NCBI GenBank assembly: GCA_003157485.1
Contig: PMJQ01000184.1
Location: 41,347 to 103,206, forward strand
Length of the DNA stretch: 61,860 bases
Source of the DNA: Ignavibacteriota bacterium
GTDB lineage: Bacteria; Bacteroidota; Ignavibacteria; UBA10030; UBA6906
Reading direction: 5' to 3'
Positions 2,030-48,629 of this stretch are shown here, piece after piece. The notes under the pieces were generated by a model that saw only the letters and a list, made by a program, of their open reading frames with translations, was not told the DNA's origin and did no database searches. Made by a program: the position numbers and the translations under genes. Within the stretch, counting starts at the first letter, position 1. Each line of letters begins with the position of its first letter.

Positions 2030-3333
2030 TGAATACGGAGACGCTCATAACGTTCGCCGTTGCGCTCGTGCTGATTCCCGCGGCGGTGATCCCCTATGTC
2101 CGGCACATCCGGGCGCAGGAGAGGAAGGCGAGGAAGAGGTTCGAAGAAGCGAAGATCGCGGGGCTCCAGGCGGCCGTGTCGATGCATCCCCACATCAATG
2201 CGACGGCATGCATCGGGTGCGGAGGATGCACGGATGTGTGTCCCGAGGGGGACGTTCTCGGGGTCATCGACGGAAAAGCAGTACTTCTCCACGGCTCAAA
2301 GTGCGTCGGGCACGGCCTCTGTGCGGAAGCATGCCCCGTGGGCGCCATCGTCATGATGATGGCTGCGCCCGGCAGGAGCGCTGATCTCCCGATCCTCGAC
2401 GAAAACTTCGAAACGACAGTCAAGAACCTGTTTGTCGTGGGTGAGCTGGGGGGAATGGGGCTCATCAAGAACGCGATAACGCAGGGAAAAAAAGTCGTTG
2501 AGCACATCGCCACGCGGCCGCGTGCGGCAAACGGGCTTTACGATGTCATCGTCGTGGGGGCGGGGCCCGCGGGGCTCTCGGCGGGGCTGGCCGCGAAAGC
2601 AGGCAGGCTGAAATACGCTGTTCTGGAGCAGGGGGATGCGGGAGGGACGATTCTGCAGTATCCCCGCCGGAAGATCGTGATGACGTCACCCGTGGAGCTC
2701 CCGCTCTGGGGGAAGGTGAAGTTGACGGAAGCATCAAAGGAGACCCTCCTGGATCTCTGGAAGCAGGTGCTTGTCAGGACCCAGCTGAAGGTGAATACGA
2801 ACGAGAAGGTCCTCGACATCATCGATGCGGGGGGGCATTTCATTGTGAAAACGGCGGCCGGCGAGTACCCGGCGCGCCATGTCGTGCTCGCGCTCGGCCG
2901 GCGTGGTACGCCGCGAAAGCTCGGCGTTCCGGGGGAAGATCTGGGGAAGGTGACGTACCGGCTCATCGATGCCGAGACGTACAAGGATTGCGACGTCCTC
3001 GTTGTGGGAGGAGGAGATTCCGCCGTCGAAGCCGCCGTTGGTCTTGCGCTCCACGGCACAAACCGCGTAACGCTCTCGTACCGCAAGTCGGAGTTCACGC
3101 GCTTGAAGGAACGCAACGCGAGGCGGCTCGATGAATTCAGGAAAAGGAACGCGGTGAATGTCCTTCTCGGATCGAACGTGAAGGAGATAGGCGAGAAGGA
3201 AGTCCGGATCGAGACCTCTGATGGTATGGGCACGCTGCCGAATGACTACGTGTTCATATTCGCCGGGGGGGAGATGCCCTTTGAATTCCTGAAGAAGGCC
3301 GGGATCCGGTTCCAGGAGCAGGTCGTGGCCTGA
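2029..3333 (+). CDS. Membrane-anchored ferredoxin-domain FAD/NAD(P)H oxidoreductase (thioredoxin-reductase/YpdA-like fold)
   Basis: N-terminal TM helix; CIGCGGC..VCP and [10 protein letters not shown] FeS motifs; GAGPAG (FAD) and GGGDSA (NAD(P)H) motifs; no redox CxxC. Confidence 0.8.
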
Positions 3334-32190: not shown

Positions 32191-33228
32191 ATGAAACTTT
32201 CCGACTTCCGCTATCCGCTGCCAAGGAACCTGATCGCGAAGTTTCCCGCGAACCCGCGGGACAATGCGCGCCTCATGGTTGTGAATCGTGCGGACGAGTC
32301 GATTGCGGGGATGAGGTTTTCCGAGATCGGGAAATTCTTCAAGAAGGGGGACTGCCTTGTCGTCAACGAGACGAAGGTCTTCCCCGCGCGCCTCTTCGGC
32401 CGCAAGGAGAAGACAAATGCCAGGATCGAGGTGTTCCTCCTGCGCGAACTGAACAAGGAGGAGAATATCTGGGATGTCATCGTCGACCCGGCCCGGAAGG
32501 TCCGCATCGGCAACAAGATATTCTTCGACGAGGGGAAACTCTGGTGCGAGGTGATCGACAACACGACCTCGCGCGGACGCACGGTCCGCTTCAACGTGCA
32601 GGGGGATTTCTTCAAGATCATCGACCGGATCGGGAAGATGCCTCTCCCGTATTACATCAAGCGGGAGCCGACGGACAGGGACAAGGAGTCGTACCAGACG
32701 GTGTTCGCGCGCGCGGTTGGCGCCGTCGCCGCTCCGACCGCCGGCCTCCATTTCACGAAGAGGCTCCTGGCGTCACTGAAGAGGAAAGGGGTGAAGATCG
32801 TCCCCGTCGTTCTTCACGTCGGACTCGGTTCGTTCCGCGCCGTCGAGGTGGAAGACCTCACGAAGCACAAGATGGATTCGGAGTACTACGAGATCCCGGA
32901 GGCGACGGAGCTTGTCGTGAACAAGACGATCGATACCCGTGGGAGTGTGTTTGTGTGCGGCACGAGCACGTGCCGCGCGCTGGAGTCGAGCGTAACGACG
33001 GACGGGCACCTGAAGAGCAACAGGGGGTGGACGGACAAGTTCATTTTCCCGCCGTACGACTTCAAGATCACGGACCGGCTTATCACGAACTTCCACATGC
33101 CGGAATCGACGCTTCTCATGCTCGCGGCGGCGTATGCGGGCCGCGATCTTCTCATGAAATCCTACAAGAAAGCGATAAAGGAAGGGTACCGGTTTTACAG
33201 CTACGGCGACGCGATGCTCCTCCAGTGA
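32191..33228 (+). CDS. queA: S-adenosylmethionine:tRNA ribosyltransferase-isomerase
   Basis: VVNETKVFPAR, PLPYYIKR, AVAAPTAGLHFT, LHVGLG, TNFHMPES and YRFYSYGDAML; Bacteroidota-like DNTTSRGRT. Confidence 0.96.
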   Translation: MKLSDFRYPLPRNLIAKFPANPRDNARLMVVNRADESIAGMRFSEIGKFFKKGDCLVVNETKVFPARLFGRKEKTNARIEVFLLRELNKEENIWDVIVDPARKVRIGNKIFFDEGKLWCEVIDNTTSRGRTVRFNVQGDFFKIIDRIGKMPLPYYIKREPTDRDKESYQTVFARAVGAVAAPTAGLHFTKRLLASLKRKGVKIVPVVLHVGLGSFRAVEVEDLTKHKMDSEYYEIPEATELVVNKTIDTRGSVFVCGTSTCRALESSVTTDGHLKSNRGWTDKFIFPPYDFKITDRLITNFHMPESTLLMLAAAYAGRDLLMKSYKKAIKEGYRFYSYGDAMLLQ

Positions 33229-42241: not shown

Positions 42242-44503
42242 ATGCACTCCCCCGCTCATCCTTCCGACCTTTACTCCATCCCGGTGCAATTTGTCAAGGG
42301 GATCGGTCCCAGGAAATCCGCCCTGCTGGACAGGGCGGGCATAAGGACCGTCGAGGATCTGCTTCTTCACATCCCCCGCCGGTACATCGACAGGACGACC
42401 GTTCTCACGATTGCGCAGCTCCGCAGGGCGGCGGAGACGGGGACCGGGGAGCCGTCTCCTGCCGGGGAGAATTCCGCCGCCGCAGACACCCGCCGTGAGT
42501 TCACCGTCGTCGGAGAGGTGCGTTCCTTCCGCCTGCTCGGGTTCGGAGCGAAGTCCAGGTTCCTCCTCGTCCTCGGAGACCGGACGGGCTCACTGCAGTG
42601 CGTCTGGTTCGGCGGGGTGCAGTACTGGAAGAAGATGTTCAATATCGGTGAAACGCTGGCGGTGTCGGGGGAGCCCGGAATGTACGGGGGCGCCCTGCAG
42701 TTCGTCCATCCCGACATCGACCGGATGACGGCGCCCGAAGGGGGGGAAGAGGGGAGAGGGTCGACGCAGTGGGTAGACGCCCTGAACACCGGAGGGCTCG
42801 TCCCGGTGTATCCGTCGGGGCAGGAGCTTGCGCGCGCTGGGCTCGACAGCGGCGGATTCCGCAGGGTGATCGCCGGAGCCCTGAAAACGTACGGTGCCCT
42901 CTTCCCGGAGATGCTTCCCCTCGCCGTCACGGAGGCGCGGCGGCTTGTGCCGGCGCGCGTGGCGCTCCAGTCCGTCCACAGGCCCGCATCGCGGGGGGAT
43001 CTCGGCGAGGCGCTGCGGCGTCTGAAATACGAAGAGCTCTTCCGTTTTCAGCTCAAGCTCGCAATGAAGCGGCGCATGACGCGCGAAGAATCGGGAGGGA
43101 TCGCGTTCACCGTGAAGTCCCGCCTGGCGCGTTCGCTCGTGGATTCGCTTCCCTTCGTGCTCACACGCGCGCAGGTCCGCGTCGTGCAGGAAATCACCGC
43201 GGACATGGCGTCGCCGCACGTCATGAACCGGCTCCTCCAGGGCGACGTCGGAAGCGGGAAGACCGTCGTCGCGCTTATCGCCATGCTGATCGCGGCCGAT
43301 AACGGGTACCAGTCGGTCTTCATGGCGCCCACGGAGCTCCTTGCCGAGCAGCATTTCAGAACCCTCCGGCGGCTCCTGGCCGGCAGCCCGGTTGCAATCC
43401 GCCTTCTCGTCGGCGCGCAGCGGAGCGCGCTCCGGCGGGATGTTCTCGAAGATGTCCGCGCGGGCACTGCGCAGATCATCGTCGGGACCCATGCCCTCTT
43501 CGAGAAGGATGTCGCGTTCGCGCGGCTCGGGTTCGTCGTGATCGACGAGCAGCACCGTTTCGGGGTCATGCAGCGCGCGACGCTGCGCGGGAAGGGGGCG
43601 AATCCCGACGTGCTCGTGATGACGGCGACGCCGATTCCGCGAACGCTCTCACTGACGCTGTACGGCGACCTCGACGTGTCGGTGCTTGACGAACTCCCCC
43701 GCGGAAGGAAGCCGGTGACGACGGTGCTGAAGAGCGATGCGGACATGGCGTCGGTCGCGGCGTTCGTCCGCGAACAGGTCGCCGCCGGGCGCCAGGCGTA
43801 TTATGTCTACCCGCTCATCGAGGAATCGGAGACGCTCGACCTCAAAGCAGCGACCGTGCATTACGAGCGGCTCCAGAAGGAGATGTTTCCCGGCCTCAGG
43901 CTCGGCCTGATCCACGGCCGACTTCCGGGAGAGGAGCGCGACGCGGTGATGGGGCGCTTCGCGCGCGGCGACATCGACGTCCTTGTGGCGACGACGGTCA
44001 TCGAGGTGGGGATCGACGTGGGCAACGCCACCGTCATGGTGATCGAGAACGCGGAGCGGTTCGGACTTTCGCAGCTTCATCAGCTCCGCGGCCGCGTCGG
44101 ACGCGGGAGCGACAGCGCGTTCTGCATTCTCGTCGCAAAAAAGTGGATCGCAGGGAGGGCGGGACGCGCCGCCGCGCGCGCACAGACGCCTGCGGCGGAT
44201 CAAGGCGCGCTTGCGGAACGCCGGCTTGCCGCCATGGTGACGACGTCGGACGGATTCAGGATCGCCGAGATCGATCTTCAGCTCCGCGGTCCCGGAGATT
44301 TCTTCGGCACGCGGCAAAGCGGCGTGCCGGAATTCAGAATCGCGGACATCATCGCGGACGCTCCGCTTCTCGACGAAGCGCGCGTCGACGCGTTCGCGAT
44401 CATCGAGAGCGATCCGATCCTCGCGCGCGCGGAACACCGGCCGCTCCTCGCATACCTCCGCTCGCGGTACCACGACGAGATGAAGTTGCTTGATGTCGGA
44501 TGA
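42242..44503 (+). CDS. recG: ATP-dependent DNA helicase RecG
   Basis: KGIGP, RLLQGDVGSGKT, IDEQHRFGV.QR, MTATPIPRTL, ERFGLSQLHQLRGRVGR and DLQLRGPGDFFGTRQSG. Confidence 0.97.
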   Translation: MHSPAHPSDLYSIPVQFVKGIGPRKSALLDRAGIRTVEDLLLHIPRRYIDRTTVLTIAQLRRAAETGTGEPSPAGENSAAADTRREFTVVGEVRSFRLLGFGAKSRFLLVLGDRTGSLQCVWFGGVQYWKKMFNIGETLAVSGEPGMYGGALQFVHPDIDRMTAPEGGEEGRGSTQWVDALNTGGLVPVYPSGQELARAGLDSGGFRRVIAGALKTYGALFPEMLPLAVTEARRLVPARVALQSVHRPASRGDLGEALRRLKYEELFRFQLKLAMKRRMTREESGGIAFTVKSRLARSLVDSLPFVLTRAQVRVVQEITADMASPHVMNRLLQGDVGSGKTVVALIAMLIAADNGYQSVFMAPTELLAEQHFRTLRRLLAGSPVAIRLLVGAQRSALRRDVLEDVRAGTAQIIVGTHALFEKDVAFARLGFVVIDEQHRFGVMQRATLRGKGANPDVLVMTATPIPRTLSLTLYGDLDVSVLDELPRGRKPVTTVLKSDADMASVAAFVREQVAAGRQAYYVYPLIEESETLDLKAATVHYERLQKEMFPGLRLGLIHGRLPGEERDAVMGRFARGDIDVLVATTVIEVGIDVGNATVMVIENAERFGLSQLHQLRGRVGRGSDSAFCILVAKKWIAGRAGRAAARAQTPAADQGALAERRLAAMVTTSDGFRIAEIDLQLRGPGDFFGTRQSGVPEFRIADIIADAPLLDEARVDAFAIIESDPILARAEHRPLLAYLRSRYHDEMKLLDVG

Positions 44504-44544
44504 GACCGGCGTCACCCTCCGGAGGTCAAAAACGCACTTTCTTC

Positions 44545-44572
44545 TTGACAACAAAGCGAAAATGCTTATATT
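44545..44572 (+). promoter_or_regulatory. Putative promoter of the ATP-grasp/GNAT/KamA operon
   Basis: TTGACA-N16-TATATT. Confidence 0.7.
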
Positions 44573-44581
44573 AACACACAG

Positions 44582-44659
44582 ATGATCAGTGAGTCGAACA
44601 GTTTGGAGCTTTTCTGGATCCTTCGTCACCACAGGTTCCTTCTTTCTCGGAGACGTTAG
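44582..44659 (+). CDS. Candidate leader peptide (uORF), 25 aa: MISESNSLELFWILRHHRFLLSRRR
   Basis: ATG lies ~3 nt after the predicted +1. Five Arg codons in the last 11 (CGT, AGG, CGG, AGA, CGT). The TAG overlaps the ligase's N-terminal beta strand in another frame. Confidence 0.4.
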   Translation: MISESNSLELFWILRHHRFLLSRRR

Positions 44660-45837
44660 CTCTCCTCTACAACGTAAAGTCGGAAGCTCCACCTCACTCA
44701 GATGCCGGCATCGCCCGCGCGAAGTCACCTTCCTCCACCGCATCTCGTTCCGCTTCAGCCGTTGATCATCCCGTTGATCATCCCGTTGATCATCCCGTTG
44801 ATCATCAAGGAGCAGCACCGTCGCTGGAGACGGTTGATGCGTCCGCACGCGTGAACGATCTGTTCGCCGAATGGGATACCGCGGACACCGTCACGGCCGT
44901 CAGGGATGCTCTCGCCGGGCGGTACGACGTTACTATGATAGAAGCGGACGAAGACGCATACGAAAAACTGCGTAAAATAAGGCCGTTTTTCGCTTTCAAC
45001 ATCGCGGAAGGACTTTACGGTCCCTCGCGTGAAGGGCAGGTCCCCTCCATGCTCGAGATGCTCCGCATCCCGTATCTCGGCTCTGATCCGCTGACGCTTG
45101 GGATTTGTCTCGTCAAGTCGCGCACAAAAGAGGTTCTCTCGTATTACGGCGTACCGACCGCGCCGCACGCCGTCATCGCGTCGATGGACGAGTGCCGCGA
45201 TTTGCAGATCGGGTTTCCGTCGATCGTTAAGCCGCTTCATGAAGGATCGAGCAAGGGGATCTACGACTCCTGCGTCGTGCGCACCGCCGCGGAGCGCGAA
45301 CGGGAAGTGGAGACCGTTCTCGGGACGTACGGCGAGCCCGCGCTTGTGGAGGAATTCCTCCCGGGCCGGGAATTCACCGTGGCCATGATGGGGAACGGCG
45401 ATGGGCTCCGTGTCCTCCCGGTCGTCGAGATCAATTTCGACGCCCTTCCCCCCGGCGCCAACCCGATTTATTCCTACGAGGCGAAGTGGATCTGGGATAC
45501 GGTCGAACGGCCTCTTGACATCTATGCGTGTCCTGCTCCCCTGGACGACCGGCTCCTCGGCGGTATCGAGAGGCTCTGCCGGAAGACCTATACAGTTCTC
45601 CGCTGCCGCGACTGGACGCGCATCGACCTCCGCTGCGACGCGGCGGGGAAACCCCGTATCATTGAAGTCAACCCCCTCCCGGGCATCCTCCCCAGGCCCG
45701 AGGACAATTCCTGTTTTCCCAAAGCGGCCCGCGCCGCGGGGATGACCTATAACGGGCTCATCAACTCAGTCCTTGATATCGCCATGACGCGATGCGGGAT
45801 CCCTGTCCGGGACGGTCGGCACGCGGTGCCCGCGTGA
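44614..45837 (+). CDS. Ddl-like ATP-grasp ligase 1 (non-canonical); start unresolved (CTG 44614 proposed; ORF track starts at 44851)
   Basis: Frame open from 44593, containing LALLYNVK (compare IAILYNE in the paralog), FNIAEG, VKPLHEGSSKG, EEFLPGREF, YEAKW, RID and EVNPLPG. Confidence 0.8.
   Translation: MDPSSPQVPSFSETLALLYNVKSEAPPHSDAGIARAKSPSSTASRSASAVDHPVDHPVDHPVDHQGAAPSLETVDASARVNDLFAEWDTADTVTAVRDALAGRYDVTMIEADEDAYEKLRKIRPFFAFNIAEGLYGPSREGQVPSMLEMLRIPYLGSDPLTLGICLVKSRTKEVLSYYGVPTAPHAVIASMDECRDLQIGFPSIVKPLHEGSSKGIYDSCVVRTAAEREREVETVLGTYGEPALVEEFLPGREFTVAMMGNGDGLRVLPVVEINFDALPPGANPIYSYEAKWIWDTVERPLDIYACPAPLDDRLLGGIERLCRKTYTVLRCRDWTRIDLRCDAAGKPRIIEVNPLPGILPRPEDNSCFPKAARAAGMTYNGLINSVLDIAMTRCGIPVRDGRHAVPA
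44759..44806 (+). repeat. Four perfect tandem copies of CCGTTGATCATC
   Basis: Read directly; in the ligase frame it encodes VDHP-VDHP-VDHP-VDH(Q). Confidence 0.97.
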
Positions 45838-45889
45838 AGAACTGCGTGGCAGAATGAGGCGAACGAAACAGGCGAAGCGAGATCACCCT

Positions 45890-46999
45890 ATGGCCAGAAA
45901 AACCCGCATTGCGATTCTCTATAATGAACCCGTCGTCGGCACCGAGGCGGGACGGAAGTACATCGGGGAGAACGGAAAGCTGCAGGAAGGTCCGCTCCCG
46001 GTCCGTGCGCCGAGAACCGCCCGCGGCAAGACGCTGGCGACGCAGGCCCTCATTGATCTCTCCGAGATCGGGGTTGTGGAGGAAATGGAGGACATCAAGT
46101 CCGCCCTCAATTCCCTCGGCTACCGGACGACGATATTCAACGTGGACAGCAACTTCTTCAGGCTCATCGACTACCTTCGCGACGACCGCCCCGACCTCGT
46201 CTTCAATCTCGTCGAGAGCGTCGAGAACGAATCCGCGCAGGAAATGAATGTGGCGGGGGTCTACGAGCTGATGAACATCCCGTTCACGGGTGCAGGTCCG
46301 CTCGCCCTGGGGACCGCGCTGAACAAGCCCAGGGTCAAGGAGATCCTCGCCGCGCACGGGATACGGACCCCCCGGTTTATGGTCTTCGGCATCAAGGATA
46401 GGGTGGCAATGCAGGACGGCATGACGTTTCCTCTCATCGTCAAACCGGCGCATGAAGACGCGAGCGTCGGCATCGACGACTGCTCCGTCGTGTACAATCT
46501 CGCCGATCTCCGGAAACGCGCGCGGTTCATCCAGACGGAATACGACCAGCCCGCGTTGGCGGAGGAATACATCGACGGGAGGGAGCTGAACGTCGCGATA
46601 CTGGGGAACAAGCCCCCGGTCGCACTGCCGATATCGGAGATCGATTTCTCCGGACTGACGGACGACATGCACAAGATCGTGAGCTACGAGGCGAAATGGA
46701 TACACGGCACCGTGGCCTATGAAGGGACGAAGGGGGTCTGCCCCGCGGTGCTCCCCGCACAGCTCGAAGCACGGATCAAAGAAACGGCGATCCGCGCGTA
46801 TTCCCTCATCGGCTGCCGCGACTATGCGCGCGTGGATTTCCGGCTGACAAAAGACGGGATCCCGTACGTTCTCGAAGTCAATCCGAACCCCGACATCTCC
46901 GATGACGCGGGATTCGCCCGCTCCGCGCGCTCGCAGGGCTACACGTTTTCGGAGATTGTGGGGAGGATCGTCGAGTCGGCGCTGGAGCGGAGACCGTGA
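45890..46999 (+). CDS. Ddl-like ATP-grasp ligase 2 (non-canonical)
   Basis: IAILYN, FNLVES, PFTG, VKPAHEDASVG, EEYIDGRE, YEAKW, RVD and EVNPNPD. Alternative start at 45854. Confidence 0.85.
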   Translation: MARKTRIAILYNEPVVGTEAGRKYIGENGKLQEGPLPVRAPRTARGKTLATQALIDLSEIGVVEEMEDIKSALNSLGYRTTIFNVDSNFFRLIDYLRDDRPDLVFNLVESVENESAQEMNVAGVYELMNIPFTGAGPLALGTALNKPRVKEILAAHGIRTPRFMVFGIKDRVAMQDGMTFPLIVKPAHEDASVGIDDCSVVYNLADLRKRARFIQTEYDQPALAEEYIDGRELNVAILGNKPPVALPISEIDFSGLTDDMHKIVSYEAKWIHGTVAYEGTKGVCPAVLPAQLEARIKETAIRAYSLIGCRDYARVDFRLTKDGIPYVLEVNPNPDISDDAGFARSARSQGYTFSEIVGRIVESALERRP

Positions 47000-47466
47000 T
47001 TCGCCCGCTCGGCCGCGAAGACCGCGGGCCGCTCAGGGATCTCGTTGTGGCGACGGGGGTGTTCACGGATGATGAGGTGGAGATCGCGCTGGAGCTTATC
47101 GATATAGTCCTCAATGATCCGGGGCAGAAGGACTACATCATCCGTGTGTACGAAGAGGGGGGAAAGGCGGCCGGCTACTATTGCGTGGGGCCGACGCCCG
47201 CGACGGAGGGGACGTTCGATCTGTACTGGGTGGCCGTCGACCCTGCACTGCACGGACGGGGGATTGGCCGGGCGCTGGACGATCACGCATGCGCGCTGAT
47301 TCGGGGGATGTCGGGGCGGCTTGTCATCGCTGAAACGTCGTCCCTTCCCCGCTACGGGCCGACGAGGGAGTTTTACCGGCGGAGGGGATACAGTGAGGTT
47401 GCGAAAATTGCGGATTATTATAGGCCGGGGGATGACCTCGTCGTCTACGGCAAATATCTGAAATAA
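46996..47466 (+). CDS. GNAT family N-acetyltransferase
   Basis: LYWVAVDP..HGRGIG acetyl-CoA motif and FYRRRGY; GTGA overlap with ligase 2. Confidence 0.9.
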   Translation: MIRPLGREDRGPLRDLVVATGVFTDDEVEIALELIDIVLNDPGQKDYIIRVYEEGGKAAGYYCVGPTPATEGTFDLYWVAVDPALHGRGIGRALDDHACALIRGMSGRLVIAETSSLPRYGPTREFYRRRGYSEVAKIADYYRPGDDLVVYGKYLK

Positions 47467-47492
47467 CCTGAAGGGGAGGATCAAAGGTACGA

Positions 47493-48629
47493 ATGGAACT
47501 CTGGCAGACCATGCTGCGGCAGAGTGTGGACAGCGGAAAAGACCTCGTGGAGAGGTTCGGGTTCGATAAAGACCTCTCGGAACGATTAAACAAGCTCTTC
47601 CACATACGAATCAACCCATACTATCTGAGCCTGATACGGTATCCCGGCGACCCGATCTGGCTCCAGTGCATTCCCGACGGGAAGGAGCTTGACGAAGACG
47701 ACTTCCCCGAGGATCCTCTCGCGGAAGACTCCCACAGCCCCGTTCCCAGCATCGTCCACCGTTATCCCGACCGGGTGCTCTTCCTCACCACGAGCCAGTG
47801 CTCGATGTACTGCCGGTTCTGCACGAGAAAGCGGAAGGTGGGCGACTCCACCAAGATCAACATGAAGTACATCCAGGGGGGGATCGACTACATCGCGGCG
47901 CACCCCGAGGTGCGCGACGTCATCCTCTCCGGCGGCGATCCGCTGATGCTCACCGACTACATGCTCGAGAGGATCATCGCCGGGCTCCGGGACCTCCCGC
48001 ACGTGGAGATCATCCGGCTGGGGACAAAAATGCCGTGCGTGCTCCCCCAGAGGATCACGCCGAAACTCTGCAAGATGCTCCGCAAGTATCACCCCATCTA
48101 CGTCAACACGCACTTTAATCATCCCTGGGAATGCACCGCCGAGGCGAAGCGGGCATGCGAGATGCTTGCGGACGCGGGAATCCCCGTGGGGAACCAGGCG
48201 GTGCTGATGAAGGGGGTGAACGACTCGGCGGAGGTGATGCTTGAGCTGATGCGCAAGCTCCTGACGATGCGCGTCAGGCCGTACTACCTGTATCAGGCGG
48301 ACATCACGAAGGGGGCGAACCATTTCCGCACGCCGGTGAGCGTCGGGCTCGAAATCATGGACAAGCTCCGCGGCCACACCTCGGGCCTTGCCATCCCCGC
48401 GTTTGTCATCGATGCCCCCGGGGGGGGCGGCAAGATTCCCCTCCTCCCGCAATACGTGCTCGGGAGGAACGGGAACCAGATCATCCTCCGGAACTACAAA
48501 TACGACATCTTCACGTATCCCGACGTCGACGACGGGGTGAAGTCACCCGCGCCGGGGGTGGAGAAACGGTTCTCGCGGAAAAAAGGACGTCCGGCGAAAG
48601 TGTACCAGCCCGACAAGGTGCAGGTCTAG
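47493..48629 (+). CDS. KamA family radical SAM/PLP aminomutase (lysine 2,3-aminomutase-like)
   Basis: HRYPDR, CSMYCRFCTR, LSGGDP, THFNHP, NQAVL.KGVND, PYYLYQAD, LRGHTSG and IDAPGGGGK (PLP Lys). Confidence 0.93.
   Translation: MELWQTMLRQSVDSGKDLVERFGFDKDLSERLNKLFHIRINPYYLSLIRYPGDPIWLQCIPDGKELDEDDFPEDPLAEDSHSPVPSIVHRYPDRVLFLTTSQCSMYCRFCTRKRKVGDSTKINMKYIQGGIDYIAAHPEVRDVILSGGDPLMLTDYMLERIIAGLRDLPHVEIIRLGTKMPCVLPQRITPKLCKMLRKYHPIYVNTHFNHPWECTAEAKRACEMLADAGIPVGNQAVLMKGVNDSAEVMLELMRKLLTMRVRPYYLYQADITKGANHFRTPVSVGLEIMDKLRGHTSGLAIPAFVIDAPGGGGKIPLLPQYVLGRNGNQIILRNYKYDIFTYPDVDDGVKSPAPGVEKRFSRKKGRPAKVYQPDKVQV

Follow-up and report, generated by a model that had tools for sequence, protein, structure and literature searches.

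The stretch of DNA considered here (61,860 nucleotides of contig PMJQ01000184.1 in assembly GCA_003157485.1, positions 41,347 to 103,206 of the forward strand; the window in what follows) comes from an uncultured Ignavibacteria-like bacterium and carries an operon of the beta-lysine type. Ligase 1, the first of the four tightly packed genes of this operon (Table 1), has no standard start codon ahead of the first beta strand of its product, and the way in which its translation could begin is the subject of this work. The ligase 1 protein matches the model PF07478 with an E-value of 1e-31 and 110 bits (cut-off 24), as expected of an ATP-grasp protein resembling D-Ala-D-Ala ligases, and is 35% identical to its paralogue ligase 2. 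Because all Ddl and Van models of NCBIfam score under their cut-offs on ligase 1, it is not regarded as a bona fide Ddl. In an AlphaFold2 model obtained with an alignment of 89 sequences (mean predicted local distance difference test score, pLDDT, of 82), the first beta strand of the N-domain lies within a block, residues 11-20, that has a mean pLDDT of 90. Residues 1-10 reach a pLDDT of about 58, and residues 25-69, which include a (VDHP)4 repeat, remain below 50. Two residues of the well-predicted block, A16 and N20, are invariant among the 89 proteins. A product made from the GTG at 44851, the next canonical start of the frame, would be devoid of this first strand, which is part of the confidently predicted fold. 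Within the clade of the window the ligase 1 protein is 84-95% identical and the operon is intact; the closest genome records are metagenome-assembled genomes of Ignavibacteriota or Bacteroidota with at most 92% identity, and DNA of the locus is present in many metagenomes of peat and permafrost. A literature search on the operon found nothing specific to it.

The ligase 1 frame is open from position 44593, immediately after the TGA at 44590-92, and ends at the stop codon at 45835-37. A preliminary description of this DNA had stated that no ATG, GTG or TTG occurs in this frame between that TGA and the codons of the strand motif LALLYN (44656-73), and that the only near-cognate starts in this interval are the CTG at 44614-16, with a GGAG (44605-08) five bases 5' of it, and the ACG at 44653; re-reading of the sequence agrees on both points. 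The same description had left room for a single-base error in the assembly that would conceal an ordinary start. This explanation is refuted by independent contigs and by the relatives: Logan contigs from four DNA runs, which derive from different samples and studies of peat and permafrost, are identical to the window over 44480-44900 with zero substitutions and zero indels, and 38 unique relatives from many assemblies lack a start as well. Metatranscriptome contigs span ligase 1, one of them, from a close strain, covering 44593-44734, and none is found 5' of the promoter. From the matches to the DNA runs and these contigs it follows that ligase 1 is transcribed and that its leader sequence is real. 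In the window, as in 38 of 95 unique leaders (about 40% of the family), no in-frame ATG, GTG or TTG precedes the strand that belongs to the fold, which is what a non-canonical start requires, and the canonical in-frame starts of the remaining leaders are scattered over positions -9, -8, -7, 3, 4 and 12 relative to the CTG. The missing canonical start is thus real and a property of the whole family.

The comparison of leaders was based on 80 genome loci, 11 loci reached via database proteins and 100 metagenome loci, which together gave 93-95 unique leaders of the orthologue group termed group A. The pattern used in the metagenome scan fixed TATATT, GGAG and a few bases of the beta-strand codons, with no requirement on the spacer or on the putative start codon. 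All group-A leaders follow one layout, consisting of a promoter, a variable stretch with a GTYSAAC box, GGA(G), five bases, CTG, exactly twelve codons, a codon called position 12 here and the strand motif T-[VI]-A-L-[VI]-Y-N, with 27-34 nt between the -10 box and GGA. Neither CTG nor GGA varies in the 93 leaders, among which are 58, all with CTG, from the scan in which this codon was free; a near-cognate codon is thus conserved at a spacing, GGAG-N5-CTG, that is compatible with a Shine-Dalgarno (SD) sequence. For comparison, in the remainder of the same 89 genes 30% of Leu codons are CTG and 21% of Gly codons are GGA, and the conserved Leu of the beta strand is encoded by five different codons (CTC, CTT, CTG, TTG and CTA). 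The residues specified by the codon that provides the final G of GGAG are E, D, A, V and occasionally others. Such a set fits a G at the first base of this codon, and with it a constraint that acts on nucleotides and not on amino acids.

Throughout the family the leader alignments show an open frame from the CTG onward and non-coding sequence upstream of the GGAG. Over the 12 codons that begin with the CTG, the ligase frame is free of stops in all 93 leaders, whereas in 1000 composition-preserving shuffles 28 sequences on average, and at least 15, contain a stop; over the same codons stops number 12 in the +1 frame and 22 in the +2 frame. The stretch between the CTG and the beta strand has one and the same length in all 35 group-A leaders on genome contigs, which were found by protein similarity. 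The distance from the GTYSAAC box to GGAG, on the other hand, is 12, 13 or 14 nt depending on the lineage, so that the box region is not coding, and in five leaders (L026, L031, L123, L124 and L171) an in-frame TAA or TAG stands directly before GGA or one codon before it. Because of these variable spacings and in-frame stops, translation cannot generally begin 5' of GGAG. The picture of coding from the CTG and non-coding upstream of it includes a downstream period-3 signal that is weak (p = 0.11); pN/pS, the ratio of non-synonymous to synonymous changes, was saturated over all pairs and uninformative. Two leaders depart from the common layout. L088 (~360-420) has TTG at the CTG position, a 4-nt spacer and an upstream frame shifted by one base, with GGAG out of frame, and in L035 (~2950-3010) the CTG frame is displaced by 1 nt and runs into a TGA overlapping the ATG of the ligase. 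Both are single-sequence exceptions, and either could be a sequencing error of one assembly.

Table 1. Coordinates of the operon, of ligase 1 and of the elements of its leader in the window.
Feature	Position	Strand	Remarks
Operon	44545-48629		order: ligase 1, ligase 2, small GNAT acetyltransferase, KamA-family lysine-2,3-aminomutase
Operon promoter, strong sigma70-like	44545..44572	+	TTGACA-16-TATATT; 11/12 matches; 1 site found vs 0.1 expected
Overlapping upstream ORF, +1 frame	ATG 44582..TAG 44657-59	+	25 codons, near-leaderless; putative peptide MISESNSLELFWILRHHRFLLSRRR, five Arg codons
GTYSAAC box	44593..44599	+	conserved in untranslated leader according to alignments; partly palindromic in relatives (TGTTSAACA)
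GGAG, SD-like	44605..44608	+	5 nt before CTG; GGA in 93/93 leaders, next G nearly invariant
CTG, proposed start of ligase 1	44614..44616	+	in 93/93 leaders
Ligase 1, proposed full coding sequence	44614..45837	+	407 aa plus stop, Ddl-like ATP-grasp
Proposed N-terminal extension, codons 1-13	44617..44655	+	DPSSPQVPSFSET; constant length in 35 group-A leaders
Candidate helix H, 5' arm	44634..44641	+	codons 6-9; consensus GCUUCCGC, window GGUUCCUU
Position 12 codon	44650..44652	+	GAG in window; ATG, TTG or GTG in many relatives
First beta strand of ATP-grasp N-domain (T-LALLYN)	44653..44673	+	AlphaFold2 strand residues 14-19
Candidate helix H, 3' arm	44680..44687	+	codons 22-24; consensus GCGGAAGC, window UCGGAAGC
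GTG, next canonical start	44851..44853	+	mechanical ORF call, 328-aa product; judged not a real start

The upstream part of the leader contains two further conserved elements. All group-A orthologues carry a similarly placed promoter of the form CTTGACA-N16-TATATT, and in the window the transcript is inferred to start near 44579-80. The GTYSAAC box, which in group A lies 12-14 nt before GGAG, is often the palindrome TGTTSAACA or ATGTTGAACAT, is kept in the more distant orthologue groups B and E as well, and could be a repressor operator or an RNA element. A start at codon -7, i.e., at GTC 44593 within this box, was considered and rejected: the database proteins annotated as starting there have GTG at this codon, the family has GTN without preference for G, and the box is out of frame in the lineages with 13- or 14-nt spacing. 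At position 12, the 95 leaders carry ATG (22), GAG (18), TTG (10), CAG (6), ACG (5), CTG (5), GTG (3) and other codons.

Initiation at the CUG of 44614-16, which would produce the 407-aa protein, is the mechanism best supported by these comparisons and is considered probable. The preliminary description had listed CTG initiation behind the GGAG as one of three routes into the gene, next to reinitiation and frameshifting, and it is this one that the comparative data favour through the invariance of the motif, the open frame and the non-coding upstream region. In the proposed mechanism, the transcript would begin near 44580 and the GGAG, by pairing with the 16S rRNA, would position the ribosome on the CUG five bases 3', where formylmethionyl-tRNA would initiate. 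The weak codon may be kept on purpose, either holding expression of the first gene of the operon low or tying it to start-codon checking, e.g., by initiation factor 3 (IF3). The first ~13 residues, (M)DPSSPQVPSFSE, would form a poorly ordered tail in front of the first beta strand, and the N-terminal tryptic peptide predicted for CUG initiation is (M)DPSSPQVPSFSETLALLYNVK. Relatives that have ATG, TTG or GTG twelve codons 3' of the CTG may make a second, shorter form of the protein. The missing consensus structure of the leader is expected under this mechanism because the initiation region would be open.

Folding of the leader RNA was considered from several sides. RNAalifold returned no consensus pairs on either 30 or 93 leaders, and a comparison of the region 44400-44950 with Rfam gave no meaningful match at E <= 10. 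The preliminary description had proposed that the GGAG is sequestered in a stem, with a flanking stem and an enclosed hairpin. The three inverted repeats are indeed found in the window, as is the upstream ORF (uORF) that accompanies them, but pairing in the three stems is possible in 50% of cells among 30 orthologues (40-55% for each stem) versus 56% when the register is slid by 2 columns. Moreover, the minimum free energy of the leader (44579-44710) is -29.6 kcal/mol versus -33.3 +/- 3.9 kcal/mol for shuffled sequences (z = +0.96, with 172 of 200 shuffles at least as stable), so neither the conserved pairing nor the extra stability of an SD-sequestering hairpin is found in this leader.

A different pairing, here called helix H, emerges from the early coding region as a candidate long-range helix of 8 bp. 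In 93 sequences 78.5% of its cells can pair, versus 41-51% when the arms are slid, and none of 500 shuffles reaches that value. Its arms coincide with unusual codon choice: codon 7 is CTT in 55 of the 56 cases in which it encodes Leu (CTT makes up 18% of Leu codons elsewhere), and at codon 23, where 88 sequences have Glu, 85 of them use GAA (45% elsewhere). The third position of codon 8 and the second position of codon 22 exchange G-C for U-A (34 versus 15 sequences), an exchange that does not track third-position GC content. On the tree this exchange rests on about six changes, with 2 supported independent pairs, which is too few for a test with power; RNAalifold does not call the helix, and in the window it is degenerate, 5 of its 8 pairs being possible; L016 and L085 are among the relatives in which it is complete. 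Pairing of the GGAG itself with CUUCC was also examined and rejected. Although 92% of cells would allow it, covariation is lacking, the pairs are nearly as frequent when the register is slid by one, and the partition function assigns it 3% of the ensemble, the GGAG having no consistent predicted partner.

The leaders of more distant orthologues, from other groups of Ignavibacteriota, are built differently. In groups B and E (L033, L037, L055, L056, L065, L067, L072-L074, L077, L080, L039, L050, L069, L071, L147 and L157), GAGAGG and CTTCC occur at the same 27-nt spacing as in group A, and an invariant in-frame ACG follows GAGG after five bases, with a conserved in-frame TTG three codons after the ACG and usually an ATG or TTG at the strand. 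Three members of these groups, L080, L147 and L157, have no canonical start at the beta strand either, which together with the ACG motif hints that unusual initiation of ligase 1 extends beyond group A. In group C, an ordinary ATG is immediately preceded by a small conserved hairpin that shows no covariation. In L043, L046, L048, L049, L051, L053, L057-L060, L062, L063, L076 and L079, the roughly 90 nt before the ligase ATG hold a different, highly conserved sequence, GAAAGGTAnCCAAAA..TTTTGGTACTCyTCTGA followed by the ATG, with a CCAAAA/UUUUGG hairpin; some of these leaders contain a CATCATCA..GATGATG pair further upstream, and the 14 sequences show no covariation. The leader of Kryptonia-type genes is short and rich in A and T. 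No Rfam match at E <= 0.1 was obtained for the leaders of these other orthologue groups.

Several observations weigh against initiation at the CUG. Differences in codons 1-11 are distributed over the three codon positions as 73, 66 and 91 (the p of 0.11 given above), versus 114, 83 and 208 in the codons that follow, and the synonymous share of changed codons is 26% in the ligase frame and 17% and 20% in the other two frames. As the period-3 signal is weak, the N-terminal tail is at most weakly constrained as a protein. In E. coli, CUG initiation reaches only 1-2% of that at AUG (bioRxiv 10.1101/063800), and in Caulobacter dnaA an SD sequence followed by CUG gives a 30S toeprint and is unused in vivo (PMC8443254). 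The use of SD sequences is itself in question in this lineage. In a crude count of GGAG, GAGG and AGGA in this one window, with 42 putative genes and internal in-frame NTG codons as controls, SD-like motifs precede 12 of 42 gene starts (29%) versus 66 of 203 controls (33%), and the organism appears SD-poor, like other Bacteroidota. Since SD motifs are not enriched and Bacteroidetes ribosomes sequester the anti-SD (PMC7797042), the GGAG may not act as an ordinary SD; the apparent scarcity of SD motifs makes it all the more striking that GGAG is invariant, and adds doubt as to how it acts. Furthermore, ATG and GTG do not occur at the CTG position in any relative of the unbiased samples. This is surprising if the codon is nothing but a weak start, and it gives some scope for a nucleotide motif that serves a different purpose. 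At position 12, about half of the family has a codon that could itself act as a start. Because of the weak coding signal, the inefficiency of CUG, the apparently SD-poor lineage and the absence of ATG and GTG variants, CUG initiation is judged to be probable and no more, and some weight is reserved for the idea that GGAG-N5-CTG is a motif of another kind.

According to that idea, which seems unlikely on balance, GGAG-N5-CTG would, for instance, be bound by a regulatory RNA or protein, or would act together with the CUUCC/GGAAG of helix H as a switch, and the ligase would start elsewhere, e.g., at ACG 44653, or by a lineage-specific route. The strict invariance of the motif, which never turns into ATG or GTG at the CTG position, would be accounted for in this way, as would the constraints on nucleotides nearby (codon 7 as CTT, codon 23 as GAA), the level of pairing in helix H that shuffles do not match, the apparent scarcity of SD sequences in the lineage and the retention of GAGAGG and CTTCC at the 27-nt spacing in distant groups where ACG and TTG replace CTG. 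It leaves the open frame from the CTG onward to be explained, however, and no other codon is conserved as a start, since codon 13 is ACG, ACA, ACC, AAG, CGT and others in different leaders; neither an RNAalifold consensus nor an Rfam match nor a consistent pairing partner of the GGAG speaks for an RNA element. Quite improbable is a supply of ribosomes to the ligase by the uORF, which begins at ATG 44582, about 2-3 nt from the predicted transcript start, and which the preliminary description called Arg-rich. The ribosomes would either slip by -1 with tRNA-Phe at U_UUC_UGG (44610-16), giving a fusion peptide (MISESNSLELF-LDPSS; MISESNSLELFLDPSS), or reinitiate after TAG 44657-59. The near-leaderless position of the ATG is in line with such a route, the T TTC TGG of the window, as read from the sequence, permits re-pairing of a single tRNA in the -1 frame, and where relatives have NTG at position 12, the uORF terminates in a TGA overlapping this codon. 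A +1-frame ATG uORF extending past codon 10 exists in 42 of 95 leaders, but much of the bias of leader ATGs towards this frame is due to an ATG overlapping the conserved GTYSAAC box, and such a uORF is absent from 53 of 95 leaders, including two of the clade of the window itself, L002 with ATA in place of the ATG and L003 with a stop in the uORF frame. Its presence is unrelated to that of a canonical ligase start (7 of 17 leaders with one and 9 of 18 without), changed codons are synonymous and non-synonymous in a ratio of 20:90 in the uORF frame versus 32:82 in the ligase frame, and the peptide is conserved only where the overlapping nucleotides are, its basic tail differing in every lineage and its stops being scattered. 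The slip site fares no better, since the codon before the CTG varies (TTT, GTT, TAC and TTC, hence GTT CTG, TAC CTG and TTC CTG in relatives), and near the TAG the window has no start codon in the ligase frame. The uORF is thus probably incidental. What defines a leader peptide of the SpeFL or TnaC type, a uORF present throughout the orthologues with conserved peptide and stop, is not seen in these leaders, nor is the conserved slippery sequence with a downstream stimulator that defines programmed -1 frameshifting, half of the family having no uORF to shift from. For the sensing of a basic amino acid or polyamine, which had also been suggested for this leader, no supporting evidence was found, Rfam again giving no match.

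Decay of the gene in this clade, or synthesis of only an N-terminally truncated protein from GTG 44851, is very improbable. Gene callers do predict exactly this product for the window, and the same applies to about 40 of the 120 best database homologues, i.e., about a third, which are annotated with 300-340 aa and without the first beta strand, and other homologues begin at arbitrary in-frame GTG or TTG codons of the leader. However, the 258 upstream bases are in frame and stop-free in every relative, the strand that they encode, with its invariant A16 and N20, is conserved and part of the predicted fold, and the protein identity within the clade, the intact operon and the transcription of the gene do not fit decay. 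With gene callers that permit only ATG, GTG and TTG, the missing canonical start leads to a systematic error of annotation, and the models and annotations available for the pathway of two ligases, GNAT acetyltransferase and lysine-2,3-aminomutase are systematically wrong at the 5' end.

Some observations on the surroundings can be added. In many relatives the operon of two ligases, GNAT and KamA lies directly 3' of recG. The (VDHP)4 repeat of ligase 1 is encoded by a perfect 12-nt tandem repeat in four copies (44759-44806), in a region of the protein that is poorly conserved and disordered in the model. Metagenome unitigs break exactly at this repeat, into 36-nt contigs, which suggests that its copy number varies in the population. 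Among other CTG-start candidates in the window, the sole long one, at 32469, was rejected as an out-of-frame translation ahead of an IspD domain.

If ligase 1 starts at CUG, it would represent a rare bacterial near-cognate start that is invariant across a gene family, in more than 90 distinct sequences, and this in a lineage that seemingly makes little use of SD sequences. It would then offer a natural system in which to ask why a start with about 1% efficiency in E. coli is kept and how start codons are chosen in relatives of the Bacteroidota. A more speculative and rather unlikely extension is that GGAG-N5-CUG and the CUUCC/GGAAG helix form a dedicated device of translational control, at which initiation occurs only with ribosomes or under conditions that tolerate a near-cognate codon and use the SD, e.g., ribosomes with a free anti-SD or a relaxed proofreading by IF3 under stress. 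Such a device, if it exists, would make the synthesis of a beta-lysine-derived compound depend on the condition of the translation machinery.

Taken with what is known from other systems, the ligase 1 leader is a variant of a known phenomenon, that of conserved non-canonical start codons. The genes rpsU and rpsR keep a strong SD in the SD-poor Bacteroidetes (PMC7797042) and resemble ligase 1 in having a strictly conserved SD-like element where SD motifs are not enriched at gene starts; they differ in their AUG start and in their products, which occlude the anti-SD, whereas the element of ligase 1 precedes the CUG of a biosynthetic operon. Caulobacter dnaA (PMC8443254) shares with ligase 1 an SD-like sequence at the correct spacing from an in-frame CUG upstream of the gene body, but it has a downstream AUG and its CUG is not used in vivo, whereas 40% of the ligase family, the window included, has no canonical alternative. 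The systems governed by SpeFL, TnaC and antizyme come to mind since a short ORF overlaps the start region of an amino-acid-related gene and contains TGG (Trp) in its frame; here, however, the uORF is present in under half of the family, and peptide, stop, slippery site and stimulatory structure are not conserved. In eukaryotes, a hairpin 3' of a non-AUG start reportedly aids its recognition, as described by Kozak, and helix H would start some 20 nt 3' of the CUG, although bacterial ribosomes do not scan and helix H is weakly supported, with 5 of 8 pairs in the window. Further precedents are infC, the gene for IF3, which starts with AUU, and other bacterial genes whose non-canonical starts are conserved. 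The start codon there is AUU and not CUG, and ligase 1 is a metabolic ATP-grasp protein and not a translation factor, with no feedback loop evident; what the two would have in common is a near-cognate start that selection has kept across relatives and has not let drift to AUG, which implies that weak or factor-sensitive initiation is useful.

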